From contig NW_026515692.1 in the NCBI RefSeq assembly GCF_025526975.1, forward strand, positions 186,001 to 250,000: a stretch of 64,000 nt of DNA, given 5' to 3'. Under the pieces are notes generated by a model, which saw nothing but the letters and a program-made list of their open reading frames with translations, ran no database searches and was not told where the DNA came from. This document shows, one piece after another, positions 9,210 to 59,869 of the stretch. Both the position numbers and the translations under genes were made by a program. The stretch is from Fimicolochytrium jonesii. Taxonomy: Eukaryota. Within the stretch, counting starts at the first letter, position 1. Every line of letters begins with the position of its first letter.

Positions 9210-9429
9210 TGTAATAATGCTAGGTCCGTTGCCAGAGACTAGCTTTGTCTCCGTCTCGATGTATTGAAAGAATTCTAGAGTCTCTACCTCCCGGGGCGCC
9301 ACCCGAAGGCTTTTCTTCCCTTCGGGAGTCACCCCAGAGCGTAGGACTCCAATATAATCTATGCTACACGTGATCTTATGCCCTACGCGCTCCCTCGCAG
9401 TAAGGTGACACCTGCAGCACCTCATTACA
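9210..9429 (-). repeat. Solo LTR of Gypsy D (220 bp) inserted in the Gypsy C gag N-terminus
   Basis: TGTAAT...ATTACA termini; near-identical to 19154-19373; flanks CCAGT/CCCGT form a 5-bp TSD with one mismatch. Confidence 0.9.
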
Positions 9430-9574
9430 CCCGTCTACCCATCTATCCATCCATCCAGCCACTGCTGCTGTTGCCCCGGCGACCTCGCAAGAACAAGCCC
9501 GAGCGCAGACTCCCCACCAAGAATGGGAGCAAGAGGACACCTGGTTCACGCCGGTTGCTAGAAGGAATCTCGAA

Positions 9575-10915
9575 ATGGCAGATGGCACCCCCGCCGGAGC
9601 TCCCCAAGCGGCCACGGCGGCCACGGTACTTGAAGCGGCGGCAAGAGGATTCGAGCGAGCCCACTGGGAGTTGAAGAATGACATCTCGGCGAGATTCAAA
9701 GGCAAGCCGGGCAAGGATGCATATGCATTCCTGGAGAGGTTGAAGCAAAAAGCTCAAAGGGCCGTGGACCAAAAGTACTTCGATAACCTCGACGACATGG
9801 TGCCCAAGTTCGGTCCCCTCTTCAAGGATGGAGTGAAGAAATGGTGGAGCAGTCTGTCGTCGACCAACATTCCATTTGAGCAATTCAAGGAACAATTCAT
9901 GGCTCAATACGACGAGAAGATACCCCCTATCTACCGCTCGGCGAAAGTAGCCAGTATGAAGAAACTCAAGAAGGAAACGTCACGCAACTTCGCCATCCGC
10001 ATCAAGGAAGCCAATCATCGTCTCGGTGCCAATGCCCTGGAGCTAGGCCAGCTCGAGTATGCCTTCTACCAAGGTCACAAGCCCCGTGAGCAAGACAAGA
10101 TTGAGGAAGTAAAGATAGGGGGCAAGGACTGCTACAACGGGGCGGTGACCTTTGACCAATTTGCCGCAGAAGTGTATCGAAGAATCGACCAGAAACGGCT
10201 CCAAAGCCGGCGCCACGCCCAAAGCTCCTCCTCGTCCTCTTCGGACTCGGAGTTGGGCTCCAGTGGCTCCTCCTCTGCTTCTTCCTCGGAAGGAGAACGC
10301 AGCCGTCGTCGCCGGAACAAGAAGAACAACAGGAGGTTCCAGCCCCAGCGACGAGGATCTCCGTCGCCCATTCTGAAGACGGCCGTTCAAATTGCCCCGC
10401 CAAGTCCCATGCCTACCGCCGATATTGAGAAGCTAGCCAAACAGGCAGCAGAGAACGAGATAACCAAGTTCAAAGAGGAACTCCGCTTGACCGGTAGCCG
10501 ACGTGGACACATGGGACGGGCCTCACACTTGACGGAATTCGACGACGACCGGGATGATTATTCGGGTTACGAGGCGTACATGATGGACCGACAACGAGGT
10601 GCATACCCCCGCCAGCCGTATCCACGCAATGACTACGGCCAGCAGAGGCAGAACGACCTCAGTATGCAAGTGCAGGAAGTCGTCAAGAAGGCGGTTGCCG
10701 AAATTGCCGCGCAAATGGCCAAAGTGCAGATTAACAATGGCCAGTCCTTGGGAGGACCCCCAAGGATCGGAGACGGAAACTGTTTCGCCTGCGGAGGCGA
10801 CCACTTCAAGGACGACGTGGACCGCGAGACGGGGAGACCAGTATGCCCCAAGAAGCAAAGCCCCGGGGCAGGAAATGCCAATGCTGAGAAGCAACATTTT
10901 CCCCGCCAGGGCTAG
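9575..10915 (+). CDS. gag: Gag of Gypsy C (originally extended upstream across the solo LTR)
   Basis: Capsid motifs FKGKPGKDAYAFL, VKKWW and FKEQFMAQY; knuckle CFACGGDH...C with an extended spacer. Confidence 0.88.
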   Translation: MADGTPAGAPQAATAATVLEAAARGFERAHWELKNDISARFKGKPGKDAYAFLERLKQKAQRAVDQKYFDNLDDMVPKFGPLFKDGVKKWWSSLSSTNIPFEQFKEQFMAQYDEKIPPIYRSAKVASMKKLKKETSRNFAIRIKEANHRLGANALELGQLEYAFYQGHKPREQDKIEEVKIGGKDCYNGAVTFDQFAAEVYRRIDQKRLQSRRHAQSSSSSSSDSELGSSGSSSASSSEGERSRRRRNKKNNRRFQPQRRGSPSPILKTAVQIAPPSPMPTADIEKLAKQAAENEITKFKEELRLTGSRRGHMGRASHLTEFDDDRDDYSGYEAYMMDRQRGAYPRQPYPRNDYGQQRQNDLSMQVQEVVKKAVAEIAAQMAKVQINNGQSLGGPPRIGDGNCFACGGDHFKDDVDRETGRPVCPKKQSPGAGNANAEKQHFPRQG

Positions 10916-11229
10916 GAGCCGACAGCCTCCTAGTCCTGGAACCAACGGCTCTTGAGCAGGAAGACCACGGAGAATCGCTGCCTCAAGGCCAGGATGAAAG
11001 TCTGACCTTTCCTGCTCGGTCACCATCAGAACCGAGAAGAGGCAGTGATTCCGATTCCGAAAGTGACTGGGGGACGCGCGGAGAAAGCACGACAGCTGAC
11101 AAATTGTTACAACCCCAACACCTGTCCAAGTCGGTAGAAGAAAAACCCAACTCGGACGACCCTGACCAAACACGCTACCCGTCCCCACCACCCGAAAAAG
11201 AACTCTACTTGATCAACCTGGTTGACAAT

Positions 11230-11682
11230 AACAATTGGCAATTGCACCCGGACATCTTTCAGCAACTCGATGACAGACCCTGGGGAGGCCCACACTGTCA
11301 CACTGTGGACCTCTTCGCCACAAAGCAGAACGCTCAAGTTTCAAGGTACTGCTCGGTCGACCAAACCGATACCAATGCAACTGCCCACGACGCCTTCAAG
11401 ATCCGCTGGGACGCCGAGAATGGCTGGGCCAATCCCCCTTGGCTAGCCATTCAACAAGTGCTCGACAAGGTGGTAACGGACGGAGCAACCATTACGCTGA
11501 TTACCCCCGTGTGGCGAGAAGCTCCATGGTACTTTCAGCTCCTCACGCTCCTCGTCGACTATCCGAAATTGCTGAACCACGAACGAGACCTCTTCGCCAA
11601 GGGTTGCTCCCGCGAACAAGACGAAGGTGTTTACGGGCTTCCGCCCTGGGAACACACTGCGGCATGGAGAATCTCCGGTGAT
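11230..11682 (+). CDS. Dam-like DNA N6-adenine methyltransferase domain within Gypsy C Pol
   Basis: WQLHPDIF...WG, DLFA (11308-11319), DAF..W, NPPW (11431-11442), VLDK and TLITPVW..APW match the signature of the phage/DIRS-type Dam family. The domain has no internal stop. Confidence 0.85.
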
Positions 11683-14600
11683 TCTGCGGCCATTCACCAC
11701 TTCCAAGACCGGTTACACTAAGCATGGACCTACAAAACCGGTGCTTGCCATGTCAAGCGCCTGTCATTCCAGGACTGCTAAGCAGGGACTCTGTCCTTTC
11801 TACGGATTCCGTTCCAGACAATCCTCTCCATCCGTCGGCACCCACCGGCGACAGCGGACAAAAAAGGGGAGGAGGACGCCAAGGCGGTGGCAATTGACAC
11901 GGCCATATTGGAAGCACACAAGAAGGGTTCACTGGAAGAGATAATGCTTCTGGAGAAGACGGTCAAGCGACGGAAACGCAAGGCATGGAAAGGAGAATTC
12001 CTTGACAGCCTTGTCTGGAAACGAGTCGGAACGGGCGAGTACGACCCCAAGGCGCAATTCTTCCTGAAATACTTGAGGATAGTCACGACAGAATTGGTGA
12101 GCAAGGCAAGGCGGTACCTCGACGTCCGAGACAAGTATGAGATCACCGCGCACCCTGGGGACGACCTACCCACCCAGGACACCTGGATTGCTCCAGTGGC
12201 TGGAAATGAAGAAAGATTCCACGCCTGGAGAGAAGCCCGAGGACTGTACCCCACGGAAGACCGCATGGTCATTCCCCCTGATTAAGGCAAAGAAAACACC
12301 CTCCTTGATTCCCTTCATGCCCACGTCGAAAAGGACACGACAAGTAGTCCTGACCTACGCAAGATGTACACCATTGCGCAGATCTACGGGAAGATTGAGG
12401 ACATGCCTCTCGACAGGCTCGTTGTCGACACTGCAGCGAGTCTCAACGGCATCGATGCTACGTTATACCTGATGCTGAAGACCAAGCACAGCTCGAAGAT
12501 CAAGGCCACCAAGTACGAGCGAGAGCTGTCCGGAATTGGCGAAGGCCGTTCAATAGGCCACGTTGAATTGAGGGTAAAGCCCGGCATCAACGGACGGCAC
12601 AGTTACAAGTTGAAGTTCAACATCATACCCAACTTGGGACGACCGGTGCTTATCGGCATCCCAGGGCTCGACGCAATGGGAGCAGTCATGGACATGGAGA
12701 AGAGATCATTCGCCTTCCGACTACCAACCGAAGAGCAAATGACCACGCCCATGAAGATAACCCTCGAAGACCATCCGCTTAACACTCACCTCCCGACGGT
12801 CGCTCCGCTAGTGCCATCACGCTACAACGTAGTCATCAAGCAAGACTGAGTGGTGTTGAAGCCAATGGCGGTGACCCACGTACGGGTCGGCAGAACGAAG
12901 CAAGGAATCACCGGAACGACGTACCTTGTCGAAGGCAACAAGGCGTTAGGCGAGTCAGGCATATGGTGTGCAAACCAACTTGGAAAGGCCGACGAGAACG
13001 GAGAACACATGTACCCAGTAGCGAATCTCATGCCCAGGAAGCGCATCCTTCGGAAAAATCATGTCGTCGGAACGGCCACCGCCAGCGACCACGACCTGCG
13101 GGTAGAACCAGTGCCTGAAGTGTATCTGACGGAGGAGAAGCTGAGCGGATGGTTGACCGAAAACCTGAAGAATGACCTACCGTCACCACCGCCTGCATGG
13201 CCAAACAGCCAAAAGGCCGCGGGCCAACGTCATTGGATGATGCCCAGATTGAGAAGCACCACCGGCTCAGCATTCTACACGCCTCAGAGCCAAGAGGAAG
13301 TGAAGGCCTACGGAACGGACGAGCCGAAAGAGGGACCAGTTGAGGTGAAAGGGTTGGGACAGGAGAAGATTGGCGAACTGGCAAAAACATCGGCCATCCA
13401 CAAGATGAAGGATTTGGACGCGGCCGCCACCCCTCTAGAAGATGAGCAATCCTACACGTCACCAGCTGCCCGCCGAGGACGAGACCAAATAGAAGCAATG
13501 GCGCCTCGGGCACACCTGACACCAGAAGAAGACAAAGCATTACGGGACGTGCTCCTAGCGAATGCGGAAGCCTTCGACCCCCAAATTTCGGACAAGCCGA
13601 ACATTCCGTACAAACACCACATGGAGATAATGCCTGGGACTCTTCCCATTGCCCACCCCCCACGCCGACAGGGCCAGGAGAAACAGAAGGTCCTACGAGA
13701 GCACACCGACACGATGCTGAAGGACAACATCATCTGGCCCAGTAGATCACCATGGGCCACTCCGGTGTCGCTGGTTAAAAAGCTGGGGGGTTGACTAAGG
13801 TTCGTCACTGACTACCGCGAACTCAACGCAAAGACGATACCCGACTCCTATCCGCTGCCTCAAATCGACTCAACCATTGAATTCCTTGCCGGCAAAAAGT
13901 GGTTTACAACCATGGACCTACGCTGGGGATTCTGGCAGACACCGATCAAGGAAGAACACAAGCACCTCACAGCCTTCTGTACACCCCATGGGTTGTTCAA
14001 GTTCAACAAACTCCCATTCGGACTCAAGAATTCCCCGATTACCTTCCAACATGTAATGGACGCGGTCCTGGCAGGACTGAAGTATAGCTTCTGGCTGGTC
14101 TACCTGGACAACATCATTGTGTTCTACGACACCTTCCAGGAGCACATGACCCATGTCTCTCAAGTCCTCACCCGCATTCGAGAATCTGGACTACGAGTGA
14201 AGTTGGAGAAGTGCCATTTTGCGGTACACGCAATTCACTTCCTCGGCAAGAAGGTGGATATCAGTAGACAAAGCCAAAGTGACCAAGATCCTCGACGTCA
14301 AACCAAGAAAAGCATCTGTTGCAACGCCTCCTCGGAATGTTTGTCGTCCACCATCAGCACAGTAAGAGGTACGGCCAAATTGCTCGACCATTGTACGACT
14401 TGCTCAAGAACGACAGAGTGTGGAAATGGGGACCAGAGGAGCAAAAGGCATTCGAGGAATTGCGAGAGGGAATGGCGGACGCAGCAATCCTAAAATTCCC
14501 GGAAGAAGGATGCCCGCTGGTACTCAAGTGCGACGCGAGCAAACTCGGACTTGGAGCAGCGCTCTACAAGATCAAGGACGGAAAGGAGATCCCTCTGGTC

Positions 14601-16570
14601 TTCATCTGCAAGTCGCTTACGGACGCAGAGAAGCAATACTCGAACACGGAGAGAGAGGGATTGGCAATTCACTGGGCCGTGACGAAGCTGGAGTACTACC
14701 TCTGGGGAAAACCATTCACAGTGGAGACGGATCACTCCGCGCTGTTGGCGCTGGCCAAGCACGGAGACCTGGCAGGAAAGTGGGCGCGATGGAGATACGC
14801 GCTCCAAGACTCACAGATGGAGATTCGGTACAAAGCCGGCAGCTCACGGTCCCATGCGGTACCCGACTTCCTATCGAGAGCCTTGTTGGAAGAGAAAAGG
14901 TCGATAGGAACTCAGACGGAGGCAATTGAAGAAGCGTCTGGAGAGAGGAAAGAGGAGGTGTTCATGATGGAGGGAGAAGCGGCAGCTGCGGAGAAGACTT
15001 CAGCTACACCAGGTGTCGTTACCCTGGAAGGAGCGTTCGCCGAAGAGATTGAACAAGAGCAGAAGGAGGACAAATTTGTCGCCAGGTACCTTGCATTCTT
15101 CAAATCGGGAGAACTACCGGACAACGTCCTGACAAAGCAACTCATGCTACAGACGATCTCCGACCTACGTGTCCAGGATGGCATACTCTATCGAATTCAA
15201 GAGTTTCGCCGACCCAAGTACAGACGCCGGATGTTCAAACAGATTGTTGTACCGGCCAAATTGCGAAGATGATGCCTGGAGCTCTGCCACGACGACCTGT
15301 TGGCAGGGCACCTGGGCAGGGACAAAACCTTCAGCAGACTTCAACAGTCCTTCTGGTGGCCGGAATGCGTGGCGGACATGATCAATCACCTCGCCAGTTG
15401 CATCAAATGCAACTAGCACAAGCCGGAAATGCCGAAGTCTGCGAGAGGAGGAGAGATGGACCCAATTGTCATTGGAGATGTGTGGTGGCGGGTCGGAATG
15501 GGCTTGCCCGGACCTTTGCCGGCTACAAGGAATACGAAGTTCAAATATGTACTCGTTGTCATCGACTACGCCAGCAAATTCAGCTTCGCAATTCCATTGA
15601 AGGATGCAAAGGCGTACAAGGTTGCCCGGGCTCTTCTGGAGCATGTATTCACCATCTTTGGGGTCCCCGGGGTGATAACATCGGACTGTGGACAGCCCTT
15701 CACAAGCGAAGTTCAGAAGGCGCTATTGAAACTACTGGGGTCCGCCCCAGCATTAGCGTCGCCCTACCACCCACCGTCCAATGGGCTTGAGGAGAACACA
15801 ATCAAGACGCTTTTGAAGATGATCCAGACGTACGTGAACGAGTACACCCACGACGACTGGGACGGACAACTTCCGTACATCTTGTTCGCTCATCGGACCA
15901 TGATGCAATCATCGACATTGGAGTTGTCATTCTATCTGATGTTCGGACGCGACCCCCAGATGCCGGGATTCTTGTGGGAGAAATCCCGGAGTCATGGGAG
16001 CCGATTGTGAAAGGAGCAATGCCGGTCTGGGACTTGCGAGCGGAGATCATCAAGCGCCTGCAGATTGCATGGGATTTGGCCAAGGAGAACGTCGCCAAAG
16101 CCCAAGCACGACAAAAGGCGTGGTACAACAAGAACTCCGAGAAGACAAGCTACCAGCTAGGAGAACAAGTCTGGCTGGCAATCCCTCAGTTTCGCAAGTC
16201 GACCAACGTGGAAAATGCGACGGCCATCAAGAAGTTCGCTGCCAAATGGAGCGGACCACACCGGGTAGTAGGTCGGGACAACGGCCTCACCTACAAGCTT
16301 ATGGAACTCCTCTCGCCTGTGGAAGTCATCTACCGGACAGCCCATATCCGGCGCATGCGACCATTCACAGCCAGACGACCGCTAGATCCGACGGAGCTAA
16401 TTGAGATGGACGAAGAGGTAATTTCGACAGCTCAATTGGCACAGGCAGCGACAGCTCGAGTCTTGAAGAAGACGCCATTCAGGCCTAAAGCGTACGGGAC
16501 GTCCCACAAACTGAAGAAGCGAGGGCTTGACCCGGACACGGACTCGGAAGACTCTGATGGCAATGTTGAG

Positions 16571-16730
16571 GATGAACGGGAGGTCTAGAAGATCATCGAC
16601 CACCGCCAGGACGACAATGGGCAGTGGGAATTCAAAGTCCACTGGAAAAACTGGAACACTCGGAACGACGGCTGGGTGGTACTCTCGGACTTCCGAGGGC
16701 AGGAGCTACTGGATACGTACTGGATACGTA
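16571..16730 (+). pseudogene. Chromodomain at the Gypsy C integrase C-terminus
   Basis: REV*KIIDHRQDDNGQWEFKVHWKNWNTRNDGWVVLSDF..ELLDTYW, with TAG at 16586-16588. Confidence 0.85.
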
Positions 16731-16735
16731 CGGAC

Positions 16736-19373
16736 CGACGCGAGTGGATCCTCCCGGGTGGTATCCGGAGGGGTGGCCATTGCCTTTTGGTCCGCCAGGA
16801 GCGCACGTTTCTTCGCCTCGACCGTGCGAACAAAGTTAGCCTCGGCTTTGGCGACGTCCGCGAGGGCGTCGTTTGTTCCCAGGTCCACCTCCGTTTCCGT
16901 GCGTGAGACCCATGCGGTATAGACCTCGGTGGTCTTATCCCTCTTGATCGCTCGCTTGAATTGTTTGGCCGTGAGGAAGCCCTCCTCATTTAAGGCCGCG
17001 CGCTTTGGGTAGAAACAGCGGGGGCGAGGGCCTGTATGAGGTTTGAGTAACCGGGCCGCGCAAGCGCTGGGTTGTTGCCATCGGCGGGTGGGAGGTTTAG
17101 CGCGGAAAGTTAGTACGGTTGCGTTAGCCTCGAATTGAAGCGCCTGGAACCCATTGTTGCGCCATAAGCGTATGAGGTCAAGGTCCAGGATGTAGTGTAG
17201 CCCTAGGATAACATCCGCGTGGATCGGGGCCACGACGAACGGGACCCGAGGGGTCTTATGAGGTATTCGTTCCTCCGTGAAGACGGAGAGGTCGGCACAA
17301 ATCATCCGCGTGGCGCCGTATGATCCGGCTTTGTCACCCCAGCGCACCTCGAGGGGCGTGGGACAATCGTACGTGTTAAGATCATGGCATTGTGCGAATG
17401 AGTCGCTGATGAGCATGGTATTGCAACCAGTGTCTATGAGGATGCAGCAGAAGATGCCGCCGACACATCCATGGACCATAAACGTGTGCTTGTCGATGAC
17501 GGGCCCGGGGCGGTATGCCGGAATGGTGTCCTGCAGTCGGGGTCCGGGAAGTCCCTCGGGTTGTCTGGACGCTGATGCGCTGCAGGCGGTCAGGCCCTGG
17601 GGAGAAAATCCTGACTCTCGACGGAGTATGCGGGGCTTGGGGGCTCCTCCGCGGCCGAATGGAACTTGTCGTTGTCATCATCGAAGACCTCGGCGGGCGC
17701 CGCCGAGATCTTGAGTCGGTCCGGGTTCTTAGGGCACGCTCGGGCGTAGTGGTCCTTGCTGCCGCAAGTGTGACATTCGCCTCGCTGCGTTTTCCTCTCC
17801 TTCCCAAGGGGTACTCGGTTGGAGTTGAAGGTGCGGGGCGTATTGCGCTTGTTGCGAGCCTGGGCCGGAGCGGCCGTAGCGGGTTGGATCCGTTTGCCGT
17901 CTTCCAAAATGCGGGCGATCCCGTCGGCATAACCCCTGATGCAGAAGGCCCTCTGGGCGGCTTCCTGAAGGGTCTTGATGGGGATGTCTTCGTCCTCATT
18001 GCCCTGTTGTAGGATGAACTGGCAACACTGCTCACGGATGCAACGTCCGACCTGGTGGAAGGTCAGCCCGTTCAGGAAGTACTGACGTTCCTGTCGCAGC
18101 GTGAGATGTTCCTTTTCGGGGAGGATAGCGTTCTGTGTGGTCAGTGCATTGAAGGCCGAAACGTAGTCTGACATGCTGTCTTTGAACTTCAGGACGGCCA
18201 GTTTCGCCTCGTTCGAATTACGGAGGTTGGCGGGGTAGAACCTGCGCCTGAGTGCCTTCAGGAACTGTTCCCGGGTGGCGGGAGGCTCTCCGGAGCGAGC
18301 CTCGAGCTTCCACCACTCAGCGGCGTCTCCCGACAAGTGGGCTACAAAGTTTTTCACGCCCCCGTCCTCCGTTCTGAATTCGGTGGCTTCCAAATAGCGT
18401 AGGTGGGCGTCGACGAACTCATCCAGTTTGGCGACCATGCCTTTCCCGTTAGCCTTACCATCGAACTTGGTCAGCATCTTAGCCAAGGTGGTTCGGAACT
18501 CCTTCTTGGCGGCCGTCTTGTGCTTACGCTCTTCGCTAGCCGCCAAATGGTCCTCGCGGCTAACTCGTACTCCAGCGAAGGGGCTGTCATCTGGGCGGTC
18601 CCTTCCCAGGAGCTCAAATCGCTGCTGGAGTTGGGCGTTGGTGTTGGCCAGCTGGGCTAGGATTTGGAGGATTGTTGCCTGTCCGTTCTCTTGTCGGGCT
18701 GGGGTACGGCTCCTGCGCCGCATGGGGGAGCGGCTTCGGGTCCTCGCCGGGGAGCGGCTGCGGTGGCAGCTTGCTGAGCGGCTCCTTCGACGGGATGGGG
18801 AGATGCTCCTGCAACCTTGTCGTCCGAGCTTGTATCGCTCTGGCGTCCGATTCCGGCGTCGGGGGTCCGGGCTTTGACGTTGATGAGGTGAGCGTGAGCT
18901 GGAGTGCCTCCTTCCAGGTGACGACCCACGGGGGTGACCCCCTGCGCCTGTGCAAGGGGCGGTTACGCTCCGCGGGGCCGTTGCCTTGGCGTTGGTTGCC
19001 GTCGAGCCGTTGCGCCCTTCGATGCGGGTGTTCAAATGGATCAAGCTCTAAGCGGTCATTGTTAACTATTGCATAGCTGACGGCGGTATTAGCACCCGCC
19101 TGAGAGTTGCTCATCGTAGGTTGCCGGGGAGATCTTGAAGGGTGGTGCTACCATGTAATAATGCTAGGTCCGTTGCCAGAGACTAGGTCTGTCTCCGTCT
19201 CGATGTATTGAAAGAATTCTAGAGTCTCTACCTCCCAGGGCGCCACCCGAAGCCTTTTCTTCCCTTCGGGAGTCACCCCAGAGCGTAGGACTCCAATATA
19301 ATCTATGCTACACGTGATCTCATGCCCTACGCGCTCCCTCGCAGTAAGGTGACACCTGCAGCACCTCATTAGA
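16736..19373 (-). mobile_element. Gypsy D 5' half: LTR (19154-19373), tRNA-iMet-type PBS, gag and protease; truncated before RT
   Basis: PBS TGGTAGCA starts at 19153. Gag has an RS-rich N-terminus, LSGDAAEWW and CHTCGSKDHYARAC. A GGATTTT slippery site leads to a -1 frame with ILIDTGC and DVILG. Confidence 0.9.
17590..19044 (-). CDS. gag: Gag of Gypsy D
   Basis: 484-aa ORF with capsid and CCHC motifs; the likely ATG at 19114 is separated from it by a frameshift. Confidence 0.85.
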   Translation of the reverse strand: MIHLNTRIEGRNGSTATNAKATAPRSVTAPCTGAGGHPRGSSPGRRHSSSRSPHQRQSPDPRRRNRTPERYKLGRQGCRSISPSRRRSRSASCHRSRSPARTRSRSPMRRRSRTPARQENGQATILQILAQLANTNAQLQQRFELLGRDRPDDSPFAGVRVSREDHLAASEERKHKTAAKKEFRTTLAKMLTKFDGKANGKGMVAKLDEFVDAHLRYLEATEFRTEDGGVKNFVAHLSGDAAEWWKLEARSGEPPATREQFLKALRRRFYPANLRNSNEAKLAVLKFKDSMSDYVSAFNALTTQNAILPEKEHLTLRQERQYFLNGLTFHQVGRCIREQCCQFILQQGNEDEDIPIKTLQEAAQRAFCIRGYADGIARILEDGKRIQPATAAPAQARNKRNTPRTFNSNRVPLGKERKTQRGECHTCGSKDHYARACPKNPDRLKISAAPAEVFDDDNDKFHSAAEEPPSPAYSVESQDFLPRA

Positions 19374-42259: not shown

Positions 42260-44965
42260 TCAAAATTGGTAACATTGCTGATTTTGAGTTGGTAACATTG
42301 CTGACGGTGAGAGCTGGTAATCGAAGACTAGACCCAGGCAGTTCTTGATGGGACCGAGATCCGTACAGTTGAAATGAGAACATACTTCACCTTTCACTTG
42401 TTTGACGTGTATGGGAAAGCAGCAGGCGATGAAGTCGTCCACATAGATAAGGAGCATCTGGAGTACGTCCAGAGTGCGCGTCGTGCTTGCGTAGCGATAG
42501 AAGACGCAGGGGCAGTTCTTTAACGGAGTAAAGCCGAGAGAACTGAGGGTTTCGCGAAGGGTACGGTACCAGAGAAGCGGGGATTGCTTCAGACCGTATA
42601 GAGCCTTGCGTAAGAGGTATACCCAGTCTGCGCGCGGCTTGTGCGGATCTTTGTAGCCTTGAAATTGTTCAACATAGATGGGTCCGTCGATATCGCTGCG
42701 TAAGAACGCGTTGGGGACGTCGAGTTGATGGATTTCCATAGCAAGAGAGACGGCACTGGAGAGGAAAAGGCGAAGAATGGACATGTGTAGGGTTGGAGCG
42801 TAGGTGTTGTTGTAATCAATACCCTTGGATTGATGAAAACCTTGAACTACACCGCGGCCCTTGTATTTCTTGAAAGTACCATCCGGAACAAAGATTTGAC
42901 GAAGTACCCAAGTACTACCGAATACGCGCTGATTGCGCGGATGGGGTACGAGCTCCCAAGTACCGTTATCGATTAGAGCTTGGAACTCTTTATCAGCTGC
43001 AAGCTTGAAGTCAGCTGTTTGACGGGAGGCCATCGCTTGTCGCCAGGTCATAGTGACGGATTGAGGCGTGTCTTCGGGATGCGCGTTGAAGGCGTTTGAG
43101 AGGGCTTCAATGGTTCGGGCGTTGAAAGCGTCTGAACGAGACTCCCAAATATCCAACGCTTCAGTCTCAATGAGATCAGAGCGTGGTTGCCAGGTAGGGG
43201 TAGTAAAACCAAACCACTTGACGAGGTATTCCTTTTGGACGTTCTTGCCGCGGCGCTGATGTTTGGAAAGGATGTGTTCGATAGGGAACTCCTCTTGCGA
43301 GGCGGGAGCATCTTCTAGAAGATCTAGGAGAGCAGGATCTTGACGAAGGTGCTCAGGGAGTCCAGTAGATTCTTCGAAACGAACGTCACGGGAAACGGCG
43401 AGAGTGTCGCGTGCTGGATCCCATACATAATAACCTTTGGTGCCTTGTTGGTGAGCATAGCCCACGAGGTACGTCTTGGTAGCACGATTAGCCATCTTGT
43501 CCCGGCCCTTGGGTGGAACAACAGTATACGTGTGACATCCAAGCTTGCGCAGATGCGCGATGCTCGGGCGGCGACTGGTAAGGAATTCGGAGCGAGATTT
43601 AGCGTCCGGGGATGCAATTGAATGCGGGTAGAGGTTGTGCAGGTAAGAGCCAGCCTCCAGGATGTACGGCCAAAGCTTGCGGGGTAGGTGAGTGTCCGCA
43701 AAGATGGCGCGTACGCGGTCCAGCAACGTCCATTTGAAGCGCTCTGCTTTTCCGTTTTGTTGACTAGAATACGCAACAGTAGACTCATGGGTAATCCCAT
43801 TGTTGTATAGGTACGACGTGAGCTCTCCAGTGTCTTCTCCTCCCCTATACGTACGCAGGATCTTCAGGGAGACGCCAATTTGATTCTTGAGCCACTTATG
43901 AAAGATCATAAACCGTGCGGTAGGAGTGGATGCCTCCTTGTCCTTGATGGAGTAGGTACGAGCGTAATTGGAGCCGTCGTCGAGGAATGCGAGACTGTAG
44001 CGCTCTCCGTCAATGCCGTGGATCCGAAATGGACCTTGTAAATCGCTGTGTATCAGCTTGCCGGGTTTGTGTGGCGGGGATGTCGATTCAGGGAAGGTAA
44101 GGCGGGTAGCTTTGCCGAGAGCGCATGGATCGCAGCGTGCGCCAGAGTCCGGCGTAGCCCCCACTGAAGGCCAATCCTCTACTATCTTTGGCATAACCGG
44201 GAGAATGTGGTTTCCAGGCTGTCCAAGACGTTGATGCAGAAGTTGGGGGTTTATACAAGCGACCAGTGCATGTGCATTGGGCTTGTAGGTAGTAGCCTGT
44301 CCTTCTAAATAGTACGCGTCGCCTTCGCGCATTCCCATCGCGAGTAGATGTCGGTCGGTGTTGAACGTAACGACGTCGGTGGGGTGAAAGGAGACAGTAA
44401 TGCCGTTATCAGTGCATTTAGCAACAGATATGAGCGGCTGGGCAAGACTGGGAACCAATAGAACATCGCAAAGAGCGAGAAGGTTGCCGCCGGACGTAGG
44501 TTGGATAAGTACGGTACCCTTCTTTTGAGAGGTAATGGTAGTCGAATCCGCGAGTCCAATAAGGCGTTGGTAGTCTTGAAGAGAAGATGGATCTAGATCC
44601 TCGATATAGGGGGTCATATGATTCGTACAACCGGAATCCACGTTCGCCTTGAAGAGGCAGACGTCGTGGTTGGCTGGTTGGACTTGAACATGCATGGCAT
44701 AAGCCATGGAGGCTGCAGCGGGTGCGTCCTGCTTGGTTTTCGCGTTCTTGTCCATGATATCCTTGACAGCTTTGTAAGTAAAGCAGTTTTCCGACTTGTG
44801 CCCGTCCCTTTGGCAGTATTTGCACCGGGGAGGCTTCTTGGTTGCGTCAGAAGACGAGGATTGGGTAGAGGGGTTGCCTCTAGAGCCGCCAGTCTTGGAT
44901 TTGTTGTTCTTCTTCTGAGGTAGAGTGGAAGTAACGTGGGCAGCGGATGCGCCCGACTGAGGCAT
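42260..44965 (-). CDS. pol: Copia-A polyprotein segment (zinc knuckle, PR, IN, chromodomain, RT), broken at ~42300 by a short duplication
   Basis: VDSGCTNHM, LHQRLG..CDPC, IHSDLQGP, QNGKAER, EYLVKWFGFTTPTWQP, LYGLKQSPLLW and YVDD. Confidence 0.93.
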   Translation of the reverse strand: MPQSGASAAHVTSTLPQKKNNKSKTGGSRGNPSTQSSSSDATKKPPRCKYCQRDGHKSENCFTYKAVKDIMDKNAKTKQDAPAAASMAYAMHVQVQPANHDVCLFKANVDSGCTNHMTPYIEDLDPSSLQDYQRLIGLADSTTITSQKKGTVLIQPTSGGNLLALCDVLLVPSLAQPLISVAKCTDNGITVSFHPTDVVTFNTDRHLLAMGMREGDAYYLEGQATTYKPNAHALVACINPQLLHQRLGQPGNHILPVMPKIVEDWPSVGATPDSGARCDPCALGKATRLTFPESTSPPHKPGKLIHSDLQGPFRIHGIDGERYSLAFLDDGSNYARTYSIKDKEASTPTARFMIFHKWLKNQIGVSLKILRTYRGGEDTGELTSYLYNNGITHESTVAYSSQQNGKAERFKWTLLDRVRAIFADTHLPRKLWPYILEAGSYLHNLYPHSIASPDAKSRSEFLTSRRPSIAHLRKLGCHTYTVVPPKGRDKMANRATKTYLVGYAHQQGTKGYYVWDPARDTLAVSRDVRFEESTGLPEHLRQDPALLDLLEDAPASQEEFPIEHILSKHQRRGKNVQKEYLVKWFGFTTPTWQPRSDLIETEALDIWESRSDAFNARTIEALSNAFNAHPEDTPQSVTMTWRQAMASRQTADFKLAADKEFQALIDNGTWELVPHPRNQRVFGSTWVLRQIFVPDGTFKKYKGRGVVQGFHQSKGIDYNNTYAPTLHMSILRLFLSSAVSLAMEIHQLDVPNAFLRSDIDGPIYVEQFQGYKDPHKPRADWVYLLRKALYGLKQSPLLWYRTLRETLSSLGFTPLKNCPCVFYRYASTTRTLDVLQMLLIYVDDFIACCFPIHVKQVKGEVCSHFNCTDLGPIKNCLGLVFDYQLSPSAMLPTQNQQCYQF

Positions 44966-46034
44966 ACTCAGGGTCTTCTCGTTGATCTGGGTGGCTATAC
45001 GGATAGCAGCTTGTTGAGAAAGACGAAGATGATCGTCATATTCTTCCTGGGCAGTTGATCTGGGTACTCAGATTCTTGGGTAGAGCTTGAAAGAAATCGG
45101 CACGGAGCACGGATTCCGGGAGCCCGGGGAGTTGTCCAGCCAAAAGGTTGAACTGGGCGACGAATTTGGTTAAACCTTGATGGGTGATTGACTTGGGCTT
45201 CAGAGCTCGCAGTCTGTGAAGAACTTGCGGCAGGTGAGTCCGGGGAATGAAGTGCCTTAACATCGCGGAGCGTAATCCGAGTTGCGGGGGCAGTCCATAG
45301 GCATCCTGAATATCGTGCCATGAAATTATGGAGAAGCGCTCGTTTTCAGGAAGGCTTTTCCACCACTGGAGAGCTGGTCCAGTGAGCGCGTTGACGACGA
45401 AGTCTACGCATTCGGAAGGCAAAATCATCTGGTACTTCATAATCACGTCAATGTGATCAATGAAGTCTTGGAGCTTAGTAACATTGGGGTCGCCGTTGTA
45501 GGTGCCGAGTTTACTAAGCGTAGTGTTGATGAAGACTTTGGAAGCTGATTTGCCGGCCGTAGGGGGTGTTACGGGAGTAACAGATCTCACAGATTCACTT
45601 TCGTGAGGAATTTCAGCGAAAGGAGGGCTTTGAGAACGTGTTTGAAAGTAAGGATGCCGTTCCGGGGCTGTATAAGCGTTTGGGACAGAGTCAACGCCTA
45701 TGTGTCCCTCCGGGCATACACACCACCGAGTCTCCAGGGGTGATCAGTCCCTGCTTACTCATTACGGACGGCGGCCGTAAACGCATTTACCCAATTCGGA
45801 TGTATTTCATAATGGCTCAATGAAGAGGTTCCATATTCGCTTCTCATTGCGCCTTCTGCGGAAGCAATGTTGGACGGTTTATGTTGGGACATTGCTGTGC
45901 CAATAATTCATCAACGAGAATCAAGATGATGCGCGACTAGATAGTCCCCTTGAGGCATGGACATTGAAAGATTATTGGACGGATGTTGCCATTCGGGGAG
46001 CGCGTCGGAATCATCGAGCGTGTTTGGGGGTGTA

Positions 46035-57203: not shown

Positions 57204-58211
57204 TCATTCCATCATCCTCTCCAAAACCCCGCGGATCTCCTTCCATCCGTCCTCCGCAACATGCACCGTTCCCCATTCCCACCCGTCCTCCCCATCCCCT
57301 CCCTCGCCCGTCCTGGCACCGCCCATCAACGTGGTCAAAGGCCGCACAGGAATCCCAAACCGCTCACACGCGGACGCGACGGACGCGGACGGCTGGATGA
57401 GGATGCCGAGCCCAGCGTGCGTGAGCAGCGGGAGGTCCGAGACACTGTCGCCGATTGCGACGGCGGTACGTAGGTGGGTGGCACCGGTGCGGTCTGCAGT
57501 GGTGGGGTCCTGCCCATCAAAGTGTCTCGCTGCCATGTATTCAGCGACCCGATGCAGTTTGTCCACCCCCGTAACGCACACCTGCCTGATCAGCCCCGTC
57601 GACACTTCCCCGCGATCCTTGTCCCCCGCCTCGAAAACCAGACTGTTCGAAATGACCATCACATCACCTTCGCTCCCCCCCGCGGCGGCATCAACAGTCC
57701 CCTTTATCAGATCGTCGGACCAATTCACAGAACACACAACCACATCCTTTCCCGCAGATCTGAACACCTCCACGACATCCCACCACCCCTCCCGCGTCTC
57801 CACACTCGCCCCCGCCTGCCGCATCGCCGCGCGCGTGGCACCGGCAAGCACCCGTGAAGCCGCGACGCGGGCGATGGAGGCGGACTCGACAGGTGTGAAT
57901 GATTGCAGGTAGTCTGTCAACGCTGAGGGTGAGCCTGAAATCGTTGCCGTGGAGTTGGCGCTTGGGTTCGTTTGCAATGTAGCTAACGCGGCGGTACGTT
58001 CGTAATCGTCGAGGTATTGCGAGACCAGAGCGTCCCATTGTTGGTGTTGCCGCTTGCAGGCGCATACTTCGTTCGGTGGCGAGGACGGTGGTCGGTTTCC
58101 TGGGGAGGAGCAGGTGCACGGAGCACAGGCCACGGCGCTAAGGAGATGGAGGGTGTCCTTTTGAGTGATGGTGCCATCGTAGTCGAGGATAAGCGTTGTG
58201 AGGAGCGGCAT
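57204..58211 (-). CDS. HAD-superfamily hydrolase (Cto1/thiamine-phosphate-phosphatase-like), 335 aa
   Basis: Motif I LDYDGTIT, motif II CSVNWS, K in TGVDK, motif IV IGDSVSDLPLL. Confidence 0.88.
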   Translation of the reverse strand: MPLLTTLILDYDGTITQKDTLHLLSAVACAPCTCSSPGNRPPSSPPNEVCACKRQHQQWDALVSQYLDDYERTAALATLQTNPSANSTATISGSPSALTDYLQSFTPVESASIARVAASRVLAGATRAAMRQAGASVETREGWWDVVEVFRSAGKDVVVCSVNWSDDLIKGTVDAAAGGSEGDVMVISNSLVFEAGDKDRGEVSTGLIRQVCVTGVDKLHRVAEYMAARHFDGQDPTTADRTGATHLRTAVAIGDSVSDLPLLTHAGLGILIQPSASVASACERFGIPVRPLTTLMGGARTGEGGDGEDGWEWGTVHVAEDGWKEIRGVLERMME

Positions 58212-59869
58212 TTGCGACTAGGGCATAAGTTCAGTTTGTTTTGTGCGATAGAATTCGACGGGGGAGTCAGTTCATGGAGGGACGGTTATGTTACAGTGAA
58301 TGGGGCCGGGTCCAGCACTAGTCATTAGTCCCCCACGAGTAGGAGGTGTGCATGGGCCCATCCGAAGCTTGAAGCCAGGCGAGACTCAGCGCCGACATAC
58401 GCTTCTCTTCCCCGTTTTGCCATGCCCTTTTCCACATAGACATCTCTTCTTGCAACCCCACGGCCTCTACACACAGGCAGCGGCCACCCCAGGTGATTGT
58501 GGTAGGATATGTGCGCCAGAGGCCGCTCTTCAAAACTGTCTCATTACATTTTTTTATTTTCTCTTAAAAACAAAGAAATGCCTATGTTAATTTGCTTCAA
58601 TGTCAAAGATAGAGGGCTCCTCCTCGCTTTCCTCTCCCACAACGCCAACCCGACTCCACTCTTGCACCTTGCTGTTGCAATCTGCGACAACAGCCTCTAC
58701 ATATTATGTCCTTGGTGATAGCAAAGCAGTTCAGGCACTTGCGCTGCTTGAACATCGCTCGAACACTGCTGCGGTGATGGCAACAACCGCAAGAAAGGGG
58801 CTGGCAGGGGGTGTTACAACTGGCGTTGATGTTGCATGGGAACGCACCTTGAGTAATGTCAATGTGATTCCCAAGCTTGACTTTGATCTGACCTTGTGCA
58901 TTAGGGCGTCGTTGTGCGAGGGGGATGACCACCTTGCCCAGCAGCAGACCAGCGATACGGCCTGGTGGTTACCGGATTCTTGCCAGCCGTTTTCGAATCC
59001 TTCTCATAGGCAGGGCCACCACTGTCTCTATTATAGGCAATGATCTGCTGAAGAATGATGAGGAGCTTGTCCGCGGCAACCTGGAGGTTGCACTCCTGAT
59101 CTTTGCGAAATTGGAACAACGACTTCCCGGCGATCGTTCCGCGGAGCTTTCTTGGCGAAGATTCAGTACCGCCCCTTCCTGAGCATCGGCTTCTTGGAGG
59201 GCAGCTTTGAACATGACTCGCTGCTCGGCTTGATTGTGCTGCATCGTGGGATGGATGAGGGGACGAATGACTGAAGTTTTTGACGGCATCTGCGGTTGCC
59301 TGGTCTCGTCCTGACGCTTCGAGCTAGCGATGAAACAAAATAACGATGCGGTAAGCGGCTGAAGTAAACCTTCGATGAGGGACTTCATCGGGAATGGGCC
59401 ACTTGCAGGGAAAAAGCCGGACGGATCGTTCAGACGGGAAGTACGTCGTTGTGCAGACGAGTTCCGAACTCGGAGGACCCCCCACCCCAACGAGAATCCA
59501 TGGAGACTCTTCAATCTCCTACCCAGCGCTGCTACCTTCGCATTGCACCTACGTCTACTTTAGGGCTCTGATGAAAAGACAGATCTGCAGACCTCGCTAA
59601 CTTGTACGGTCTCATCAACACGAAGGCTGTCGTGGCCTACTTCTTAGATATTGGGGTGATTGAGAAATGCGGGCAAATCATGGAAGAAGGTTTCGTGGGA
59701 TGGTTTGCGCAAGCTTTTTTGCACATCTTTGTAGGAACCGTGGTTTTAGTCCATAGCCAGCGCATTCCACAGGCGTTACACTCGAAGTGACCCGTCTTTG
59801 CGGCCGGACTATCCATCGGCGTAGTCGATTAGAGCGGCTTCAGCGTGCCGATTCAGACGCGATACTTCG

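Follow-up and report, generated by a model that had tools for sequence, protein, structure and literature searches.

Ty3/Gypsy elements that carry a DAM-family methyltransferase, and the idea that they mimic the host's 6mA, were described in May 2026 by Fernandez-Moreno et al. (bioRxiv 10.64898/2026.05.21.726589), whose text places these DAM-LTRs in five lineages (chlorophyte, chlorophyte-ochrophyte, ichthyosporean, Pyropia and Euglena). The text of this preprint also states that DAM-LTRs are enriched in hosts with AMT1 (9/13), that their insertions are more often marked by 6mA and more highly expressed, and that eukaryotic DAMs expressed in E. coli did not raise 6mA. In DIRS1-type elements, a methyltransferase (MT) domain of the same family as the one described here, with a common C-terminal tail of ~47 amino acids, lies behind RNase H and is accompanied by a tyrosine recombinase (YR) (PMC3783388; PMC4738411); Iyer et al. 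regard these DIRS domains as likely inactive and derived from PCIF1 (PMC4738411). As for the host, the available text of one report lists Fimicolochytrium jonesii among the few chytrids with high 6mA and gives its genome >1% 6mA (PMC11258239). In Spizellomyces, a related chytrid, 6mA marks expressed genes and 5mC is confined to transposons (PMC12695648).

Here, we analyzed a window of 64,000 nucleotides from F. jonesii contig NW_026515692.1 (the whole stretch, to which all positions refer), which almost certainly contains a copy of a Ty3/Gypsy family whose Pol is headed by a DIRS-type N6-adenine methyltransferase domain. The origin agrees with a host gene at 57210-58217, whose product shows 100% identity to a protein of F. 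jonesii. On the plus strand, a gag-like ORF is followed by a Pol spacer, the MT, its tail, a linker, protease (PR), reverse transcriptase (RT), RNase H (RH), integrase (IN) and a chromodomain. The order PR-RT-RH-IN, with an RVT_1-type RT and a DDE integrase, is that of Ty3/Gypsy elements, and the matches to RT, RNase H, rve and Chromo each exceed their Pfam cut-offs. The latter two bear out the DDE integrase and chromodomain claimed in an earlier, sequence-only reading of the locus, although the first catalytic Asp of the integrase is a Gly in this copy. The same reading had found no tyrosine recombinase; in agreement, tblastn with two YR-bearing proteins matched the MT region only. The element thus lacks the DIRS1-type arrangement (an RT-RH-MT ORF plus YR, with neither protease nor DDE integrase); rather, its MT is N-terminal in a Gypsy Pol that has both. 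Pfam found no DNA_methylase match in any of the element's 10 plus-strand ORF pieces, and no cytosine DNMT is listed for its relatives P0156 and P0157. Because it has no DNMT, the element is not an EpiLTR, a type that combines a DAM with a cytosine DNMT and a chromodomain.

The element resembles the DAM-LTRs in its Ty3/Gypsy RT, its DDE integrase, its DIRS-related DAM with an NPP triad and its high-6mA host, and the function proposed in the preprint's text is the same. It has two features of the DAM-LTRs, a DAM-family domain inside the Gypsy Pol frame and a conserved Asn-Pro-Pro triad (NPPW). The sequence-only reading knew of no well-characterized Gypsy element of this design, a statement overtaken by the DAM-LTRs; because the preprint's text already covers such elements and the notion of 6mA mimicry, the element is not the first of its kind. 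It differs in the position of the DAM, which lies ahead of the protease here and in the interval between RT and integrase in the only arrangement that the preprint's text states. In that text, 'fung', 'chytrid', 'gag' and 'protease' do not occur, and because it names no fungus, the element likely represents an additional, fungal lineage of DAM-LTRs. In the literature we found no fungal or chytrid Gypsy element with a Dam-type domain, the nearest accounts being the 2026 preprint and a cytosine-methyltransferase paper.

The gag-like ORF (9404-10915; 446 codons from its first ATG at 9575, all open) contains a CCHC-like knuckle at 10781-10846. Because it has no Pfam gag match, we assign it as gag from its position and this knuckle only. 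The pol frame opens at 10888, in the -1 frame relative to gag and overlapping its end, as the sequence-only reading had noted. The slippery site that it named there is present (CATTTTCCC, 10895-10903), but its slippery run, T TTT CCC at 10897-10903, is non-canonical in that it differs from X XXY YYZ, and the gag frame of the gag/pol overlap holds no canonical site. Beside it, a 13-bp stem-loop at 10906-10939 spans the gag stop. Its folding energy of -27.1 kcal/mol (z -2.8) was equaled in 2 of 200 shuffles, and of 1029 windows of 42 nt sampled across the element, just one is as stable. Slippery run and stem-loop together (10897-10939) form a likely -1 ribosomal frameshift signal.

Pol begins with an acidic, low-complexity spacer (10888-11220) that is not conserved; no alignment to 10 relatives scored 60 or more. 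It leads into the DIRS/Dam-type N6-adenine methyltransferase domain (11221-11682, open, ~154 amino acids), with DLFA at 11308-11319 and NPPW at 11431-11442, and the frame is free of stops from 10888 to 11718, as had been claimed. Against Pfam Dam (PF05869), the profile that the sequence-only reading proposed as a check, the domain does match (E=0.0033), but at 17.6 bits it stays below the curated cut-off of 28.1, and this E-value would fall outside the preprint's threshold of 1e-5. The phage profile phrog_111 matches weakly as well (E 0.01), and the element shares the NPP-aromatic motif with the phage and bacterial Dam-type enzymes, including T4 Dam. A phmmer search of 1.84 billion representatives retrieved 4862 relatives of the domain at E<=1e-3.

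The AlphaFold model (pLDDT 92) adopts a SAM-methyltransferase fold, in line with the Rossmann fold that had been expected, so that a predicted Rossmann-type fold and motif IV, (N/D/S)PP(Y/F/W), are both present. The five best Foldseek matches at E<=1e-3 are all PCIF1/CAPAM, and PCIF1/CAPAM (PDB 6IRX) also leads the wide structural search (Z 11.3, rmsd 3.4, 154 residues aligned), followed mostly by rRNA adenine methyltransferases; T4 Dam (Z 7.8, 114 aligned) and E. coli Dam (Z 7.5) match less well. This best structural match has no counterpart in sequence: identity to 6IRX is 14%, sequence searches of the PDB retrieved no methyltransferase, and the domain of the element is element-encoded and without a WW domain. 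By its modeled fold and motif, the domain is a SAM-dependent amino-methyltransferase, for which transfer to adenine is predicted.

The MT is followed by the ~47-amino-acid tail (11683-11823, interrupted by stops at 11719 and 11779), whose homologue in DIRS elements is the C-terminal end of their RT-RH-MT ORF. In a profile comparison by hhalign, devised after the sequences had been seen, it aligned to DIRS tails with a probability of 91% and a score of 28.4, whereas 100 column shuffles reached at most 14.3; the profiles drew on the 47 of 105 DIRS proteins and 6 of 13 RH-DAM-IN proteins that had a findable anchor and at least 35 residues. The tail of a second N-terminal group (one of three usable) gave no match, and with an HMM built from 39 DIRS tails the window scored at chance level (110 of 500 shuffles equally high). 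Of 154 classified homologues of the domain, 105 have it downstream of an RNase H of DIRS type. As its origin, we propose that a Gypsy element captured MT and tail together as the 3' end of a DIRS pol ORF. Neither the two quick trees (6 short rows were dropped from one of them) nor a careful LG+G4 tree of 47 chosen rows, from which P0006 was excluded as a long branch, show that such a capture was direct and separate.

Beyond the tail, a linker (11824-12357, ~29% identity to relatives) connects the MT to an aspartic protease (12358-12717). Pfam gave no match for the latter at E<=0.1, and we therefore identified it from its DTA motif (Asp codon at 12427) and its 40-47% identity to P0001, P0048 and P0157. 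The Ty3/Gypsy RT (13690-14259) has YLDN (14101-14112) in place of YxDD, where relatives have YVDD. RNase H and the integrase core (14304-15989) and the integrase C-terminal region with the chromodomain (15998-16723, chromodomain 16589-16723) complete Pol, the latter region being cut at the junction with an antisense element. The sequence-only reading had stated that the frame is kept into protease and RT across point-mutation stops; indeed, five stops interrupt it (11719, 11779, 12283, 12847 and 13792), all TAA or TGA. Past the RT there are two frameshifts, one after ~14259, and three further stops (15270, 15414 and 16586). With eight stops, two frameshifts, mutated RT and integrase sites and no LTR of its own, this copy is dead.

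The architecture itself is real, family-wide and conserved. The unrelated metagenomic protein P0001 carries MT, tail, linker, PR and the start of RT in a single open frame and aligns collinearly to the window along 845 columns, with 37% identity (E 1e-176), and the MT also runs into PR in P0048, P0010, P0009 and P0016. These proteins bear directly on the reading that a nested DIRS fragment is in frame by chance in a single copy. The heavily nested surroundings and the DIRS tail of the domain would suit such an insertion, but identical junctions recur in independent elements at 37-50% identity and neither a DIRS RT nor a YR flanks the domain. Because P0001 and P0048 have the same MT-to-PR arrangement, a chance insertion, which the sequence-only reading had named as a possible refutation, is itself refuted, and we leave it next to no probability.

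The MT is better conserved than the protease (53-67% versus 40-47% identity to relatives, with 29% for the linker). NPP[WYF] is present in all eight N-terminal-type relatives checked, and N77, P78, P79 and W80 as well as D36-L37-F38-A39 are invariant in six of six clade sequences whose overall identity is 41-58%. The RT clusters with Gypsy-type, not DIRS, RTs in a quick tree (SH-aLRT 100). In this tree, which contains no named reference RTs, it stands apart from three RTs that we take, by their motifs, to be chromovirus-like. The nearest RTs, P0156 (78%) and P0157 (75%), come from contigs equal in size to those of MT-bearing proteins (11016 for P0156, P0012 and P0048; 28653 for P0157 and P0002), and on this basis only, MT and RT likely travel together. 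Among 28 RT relatives, P0182 alone has a true MT; weak A2-profile matches, present in most of these 28, were rejected as artefacts, being at RNase H positions and due to RNase H columns in the A2 alignment. A search for the DNA of the relatives did not find it: 232 pattern matches in JGI metagenomes reduced to two loci, of which the one inspected (L002) is a DIRS element; the yield was 0 of 54 and 0 of 600 in viral contigs, and a single weak hit of 17 in prokaryote genomes.

The best explanation, to which we give an even chance, is that this is the dead copy of a Gypsy family whose MT, packaged in active copies, would mark the family's own cDNA with 6mA and so give new inserts the active-chromatin mark of the host. 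A few ribosomes would slip by -1 at T TTT CCC ahead of the hairpin and produce Gag-MT-PR-RT-RH-IN-chromodomain; the fusion would assemble into the particle with RNA, and the protease would free the MT. With SAM, the MT would then N6-methylate adenines of the reverse-transcription product. A domain of only ~154 amino acids would take an RNA:DNA hybrid or the single-stranded cDNA as its substrate in preference to naked duplex. After integration, a putative host AMT1 would maintain 6mA at ApT, and the insert would stay transcribable and away from 5mC silencing. That co-assembly with MT release, cDNA methylation and maintenance by AMT1 all hold jointly is slightly less probable than even.

The sequence-only reading had proposed that a Gypsy-borne MTase mimics the host's 6mA; the architecture and the high-6mA host fit this proposal, whereas its DNA substrate is weakened by the PCIF1 fold and by the E. 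coli result in the preprint's text. That this copy is dead and has no LTRs of its own counts against the proposal as well. The PCIF1 fold and the E. coli result favor an active PCIF1-like RNA methyltransferase that would mark cap-adjacent or internal adenosines of the element's genomic RNA, to the benefit of its stability, translation or packaging, and leave DNA unmodified; Iyer et al. indeed assign the DIRS domain to the PCIF1 clade (PMC4738411). Yet identity to PCIF1 is just 13-15%, a common fold does not reveal the substrate, and most of PCIF1 is missing (154 model residues versus a 482-residue chain). The weak matches to phage DNA methyltransferase profiles and, in the preprint's text, the 6mA enrichment on DAM-LTR insertions also point to DNA, and we consider an RNA mark unlikely. 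To a similar degree, we doubt that the domain is non-catalytic, or its catalysis dispensable, and that it binds nucleic acid or SAM inside the particle, or provides a tether to either RNA polymerase II or chromatin. Iyer et al. suggest as much for the DIRS domains (PMC4738411), and the negative E. coli assay would agree, but the invariance of NPPW and DLFA in sequences of 41-58% identity is as expected under selection for catalysis. Methylation could also shield the cDNA during transit against nucleases or sensors of the host, or favor its integration, the link to active chromatin being incidental. According to the preprint's text, DIRS elements retain the domain even where the lineage lacks 6mA or AMT1, and it therefore has some use independent of host 6mA. 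The enrichment of LTR-borne DAMs in AMT1 hosts and the place of F. jonesii among the few high-6mA chytrids (PMC11258239, available text) argue against this role, which we rate as quite improbable.

Returning to the marking of cDNA, a more specific version is possible if doubtful: the element would belong to an independent fungal lineage, a non-chromoviral Gypsy that acquired precisely the 3' end of a DIRS pol and placed it behind its gag frameshift, and its active particle MT would mark the reverse-transcription intermediate with 6mA and so install an AMT1-maintained active state where 5mC silences transposons. If true, this would be the first fungal transposon to forge its host's activating DNA mark. 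With this locus, the range of Gypsy elements that carry a methyltransferase comes to include fungi, and here a high-6mA chytrid, the host that the published hypothesis predicts. Since the MT folds like PCIF1 and sits within Gag-Pol, its candidate substrates are RNA and RNA:DNA hybrids inside the particle, and a substrate of this kind could account for the negative E. coli result. Activity and substrate are approachable in F. jonesii, a species that already has 6mA measurements; its relative Spizellomyces punctatus is reportedly transformable.

The surrounding region is a heavily nested cluster of transposons. No direct LTRs, PBS, PPT or target-site duplication of the Dam element's own are found at the locus, where the copy is truncated. 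A flanking LTR pair was rejected as its own, since the PBS and PPT are on the opposite strand and there is no target-site duplication. These LTRs belong to a second Gypsy element on the minus strand, with the 3' LTR (220 bp) at 9210-9429, a purine-rich tract at 9430-9456 lying ahead of it in the minus-strand direction, and the 5' LTR at 19154-19373, followed by the PBS-like TGGTAGCACC. They differ at 6 positions in 219 bp and enclose a coding block at 16706-19047 (gag 17590-19047, protease ORF 16706-17674). This element is joined head-on to the chromodomain of the Dam element, with an 11-bp duplication at the junction.

The Pol of the Dam element, the Ty3/Gypsy copy in the window, begins with a Dam-like N6-adenine methyltransferase (MT) domain, and sequence comparison tells us that this fusion is real. 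P0001, a metagenomic relative, carries the MT, a linker, the protease and the start of the reverse transcriptase (RT) in a single open frame that aligns collinearly to the window's pol over 845 columns (37% identity, E 1e-176), bearing out the sequence-only reading that an MT lies inside a Gypsy Pol. The gag-side frame spans 503 open codons (first ATG at 9575), carries a CCHC-like knuckle close to its end and terminates at 10915. As had been read, the pol frame opens at 10888, at -1 relative to gag; because it holds no ATG ahead of the MT domain, its reading requires a frameshift (or splicing). A slippery site had been claimed for the 28-base overlap, and that claim stands in part: the sole candidate, T TTT CCC (10897-10903), is followed by a 13-bp stem-loop, but it departs from the canonical X XXY YYZ heptamer. 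The stem-loop (-27.1 kcal/mol, z -2.8) was equaled in stability by 2 of 200 shuffles and by only one of 1029 42-nt windows sampled along the element. Slippery candidate and rare stable stem-loop together suggest that a programmed -1 frameshift probably joins gag and pol. The pol frame is free of stops to 11718, a stretch that includes the DLFA and NPPW motifs, and continues to the RT through five stops, all TAA or TGA, in keeping with the described order of MT, protease and RT in one interrupted frame. RT, RNase H, integrase core and chromodomain all exceed their Pfam cut-offs, so the integrase and chromodomain previously attributed to the element are sound.

Searching 1.84 billion representatives with the MT returned 4862 matches, of which we classified the best 150, plus four from a separate search, by architecture. 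A DIRS-type RNase H precedes the MT in 105 of these 154 proteins, and Gypsy RNase H or integrase adjoins it in 13; the MT runs into a protease in five, lies after an endonuclease and ahead of the RT in one, and stands alone or in other arrangements in 30. The top-scoring matches are of the MT-protease type, one of them (P0016) from the early-diverging fungus Olpidium bornovanus. Among 28 RT matches the nearest are P0156 (78%) and P0157 (75%), whose contigs equal in length those of the MT-bearing P0012/P0048 and P0002, respectively, a coincidence that hints at whole elements of like design without proving them. Against P0001 and these five relatives, the window shares 53-67% identity in the MT, 40-47% in the protease, 29% in the linker and 74-77% in the RT, and DLFA and NPPW are invariant across the six-sequence clade alignment, an invariance that argues for selection on the domain. 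Between protease and RT, a conserved region of ~100 amino acids (12800-13120, plus strand; 37-41% identity to P0001, P0048 and P0157) has no Pfam match. We take it to resemble a beta-rich stretch, similar to dUTPase, that certain Gypsy elements carry.

A profile-profile comparison pairs the ~47 residues that follow the MT with the tail at the C-terminal end of DIRS pol ORFs (probability 91%, score 28.4; none of 100 column shuffles scored above 14.3). A simpler single-sequence test of this match was negative, and Gypsy proteins of RH-MT-IN order gave no profile-profile match to the tail (0.16%). In MT trees, the window falls inside a five-member N-terminal clade (support 96 in one tree, 100/98 in the other), nested in a 23-row group (95 and 89/91) that takes in almost every LTR-borne MT together with a single DIRS. 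The RTs of MT-bearing LTR groups are scattered in a quick tree, with the window family separate (support 94). Taken together, the tail, the MT trees and the scattered RTs point to the 3' end of a DIRS pol as the source of the MT, which was then transferred between Gypsy lineages; the window family may have acquired it from DIRS directly or from another LTR element still bearing the tail. Muszewska et al. (PMC3783388) report S. punctatus and Batrachochytrium to be without tyrosine-recombinase elements, so the DIRS donor need not reside in the F. jonesii genome. P0182 carries a very distant MT ahead of its protease, with a different RT, and the N-terminal position therefore likely evolved more than once. 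P0016, from the early-diverging fungus named above (dUTPase, then Dam, then a protease-like end), makes up a second N-terminal-Dam group with P0009 and P0017. In P0070, a Gypsy-like polyprotein of 2382 amino acids (protease, Exo_endo_phos endonuclease, Dam, RT-RH-IN), Dam occupies yet another position, beside a LINE-type endonuclease.

The proposed check against Pfam Dam (PF05869) came out below cut-off (E=0.0033). The predicted model (pLDDT 92.4, pTM 0.88) has an amino-methyltransferase fold, which confirms the enzyme class. All five Foldseek matches at E<=1e-3 are PCIF1/CAPAM, the cap-adenosine N6-methyltransferase, which also leads the wide structure search (Z 11.3, rmsd 3.4, 154 aligned), above mostly rRNA adenine methyltransferases (Z 8-9.4) and the lower-scoring M.TaqI (8.0), T4 Dam (7.8) and E. 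coli Dam (7.5). This agrees with Iyer et al. (PMC4738411), who assign the domain of DIRS elements to the PCIF1 clade and regard it as probably inactive. At 57210-58217 the window holds a non-transposon ORF that matches an F. jonesii protein at 100% identity. F. jonesii is one of three chytrids with more than 1% 6mA in a generally low phylum (Lax et al., PMC11258239); in Spizellomyces, expressed genes carry the 6mA mark, and 5mC lies only on transposons (PMC12695648).

In the mechanism that we rate as most likely, at close to an even chance, the MT would be translated as a portion of Gag-Pol, and we infer the subsequent steps: it would be carried into the particle and methylate adenines on the reverse-transcription product, and host AMT1 would then maintain 6mA on the insert, keeping it transcribable. 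The fold, with its PCIF1 and rRNA methyltransferase neighbors, bears on RNA methylation, to which we assign a minor share of the probability; a non-catalytic binding role, in line with the presumed inactivity of the DIRS domain and opposed by the invariant DLFA and NPPW, is given the same modest weight. That the MT serves cDNA protection appears quite improbable, and its nesting in frame by chance, hardly credible beside the collinear frame of P0001, is refuted. Methylation of the reverse-transcription product followed by AMT1 upkeep is also the functional model of a recent preprint (bioRxiv 10.64898/2026.05.21.726589), which describes DAM-carrying Ty3/Gypsy elements in five lineages, their enrichment in AMT1 hosts (9/13), raised 6mA and expression, and a negative E. 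coli assay. The sequence-only reading knew of no well-characterised Gypsy with such an architecture and allowed for prior reports; the window's fusion, real and conserved, is a new member of this recently described kind. The preprint's main text mentions neither fungi, chytrids, gag nor protease; a fungal entry or an N-terminal DAM could still appear in Figure 2B or the tables. Our literature search found no chytrid case of an MT-carrying Gypsy. The window element is likely a further, fungal lineage of DAM-LTRs, with intact motifs and in a high-6mA host.

This copy is dead: it carries eight in-frame stops and two frameshifts, its RT reads YLDN in place of YxDD, and the first integrase Asp is replaced by Gly. 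LTRs belonging to it are absent from this locus. The flanking 220-bp LTRs (9210-9429 and 19154-19373, minus strand; 6/219 positions differ) are accompanied on the minus strand by a purine tract and by TGGTAGCACC, which resembles a PBS. They are part of a second Gypsy element, and the gag and protease of that element extend from 19047 down to 16706 (minus strand). Between these 97%-identical LTRs (9210-19373), the entire Dam element internal region lies antisense in place of the second element's RT-IN, and an 11-bp duplication, TGGATACGTAC, marks the junction near 16710. No target-site duplication surrounds the LTR-bounded unit. The unit may be chimeric and mobilisable, and may have arisen by nested insertion plus deletions or by template-switching capture.

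Fragments of Gypsy, Copia and DDE transposons are densely nested in positions 1-46500 of the window; only past ~46500 do host genes occur (HAD-like, F-box, CUE-like). Chromodomains are unusual among Copia elements; a Ty1/Copia pol at 42263-45067 (minus strand; RVT_2, SH3, beta-barrel) has a weak, sub-cut-off chromodomain match (E 4e-4) between its integrase SH3 region and RT. P0172, a Gypsy-type Pol in a database record, has a SET domain (PF00856) downstream of its integrase, and this retrotransposon may thus carry a histone-methyltransferase-like domain.
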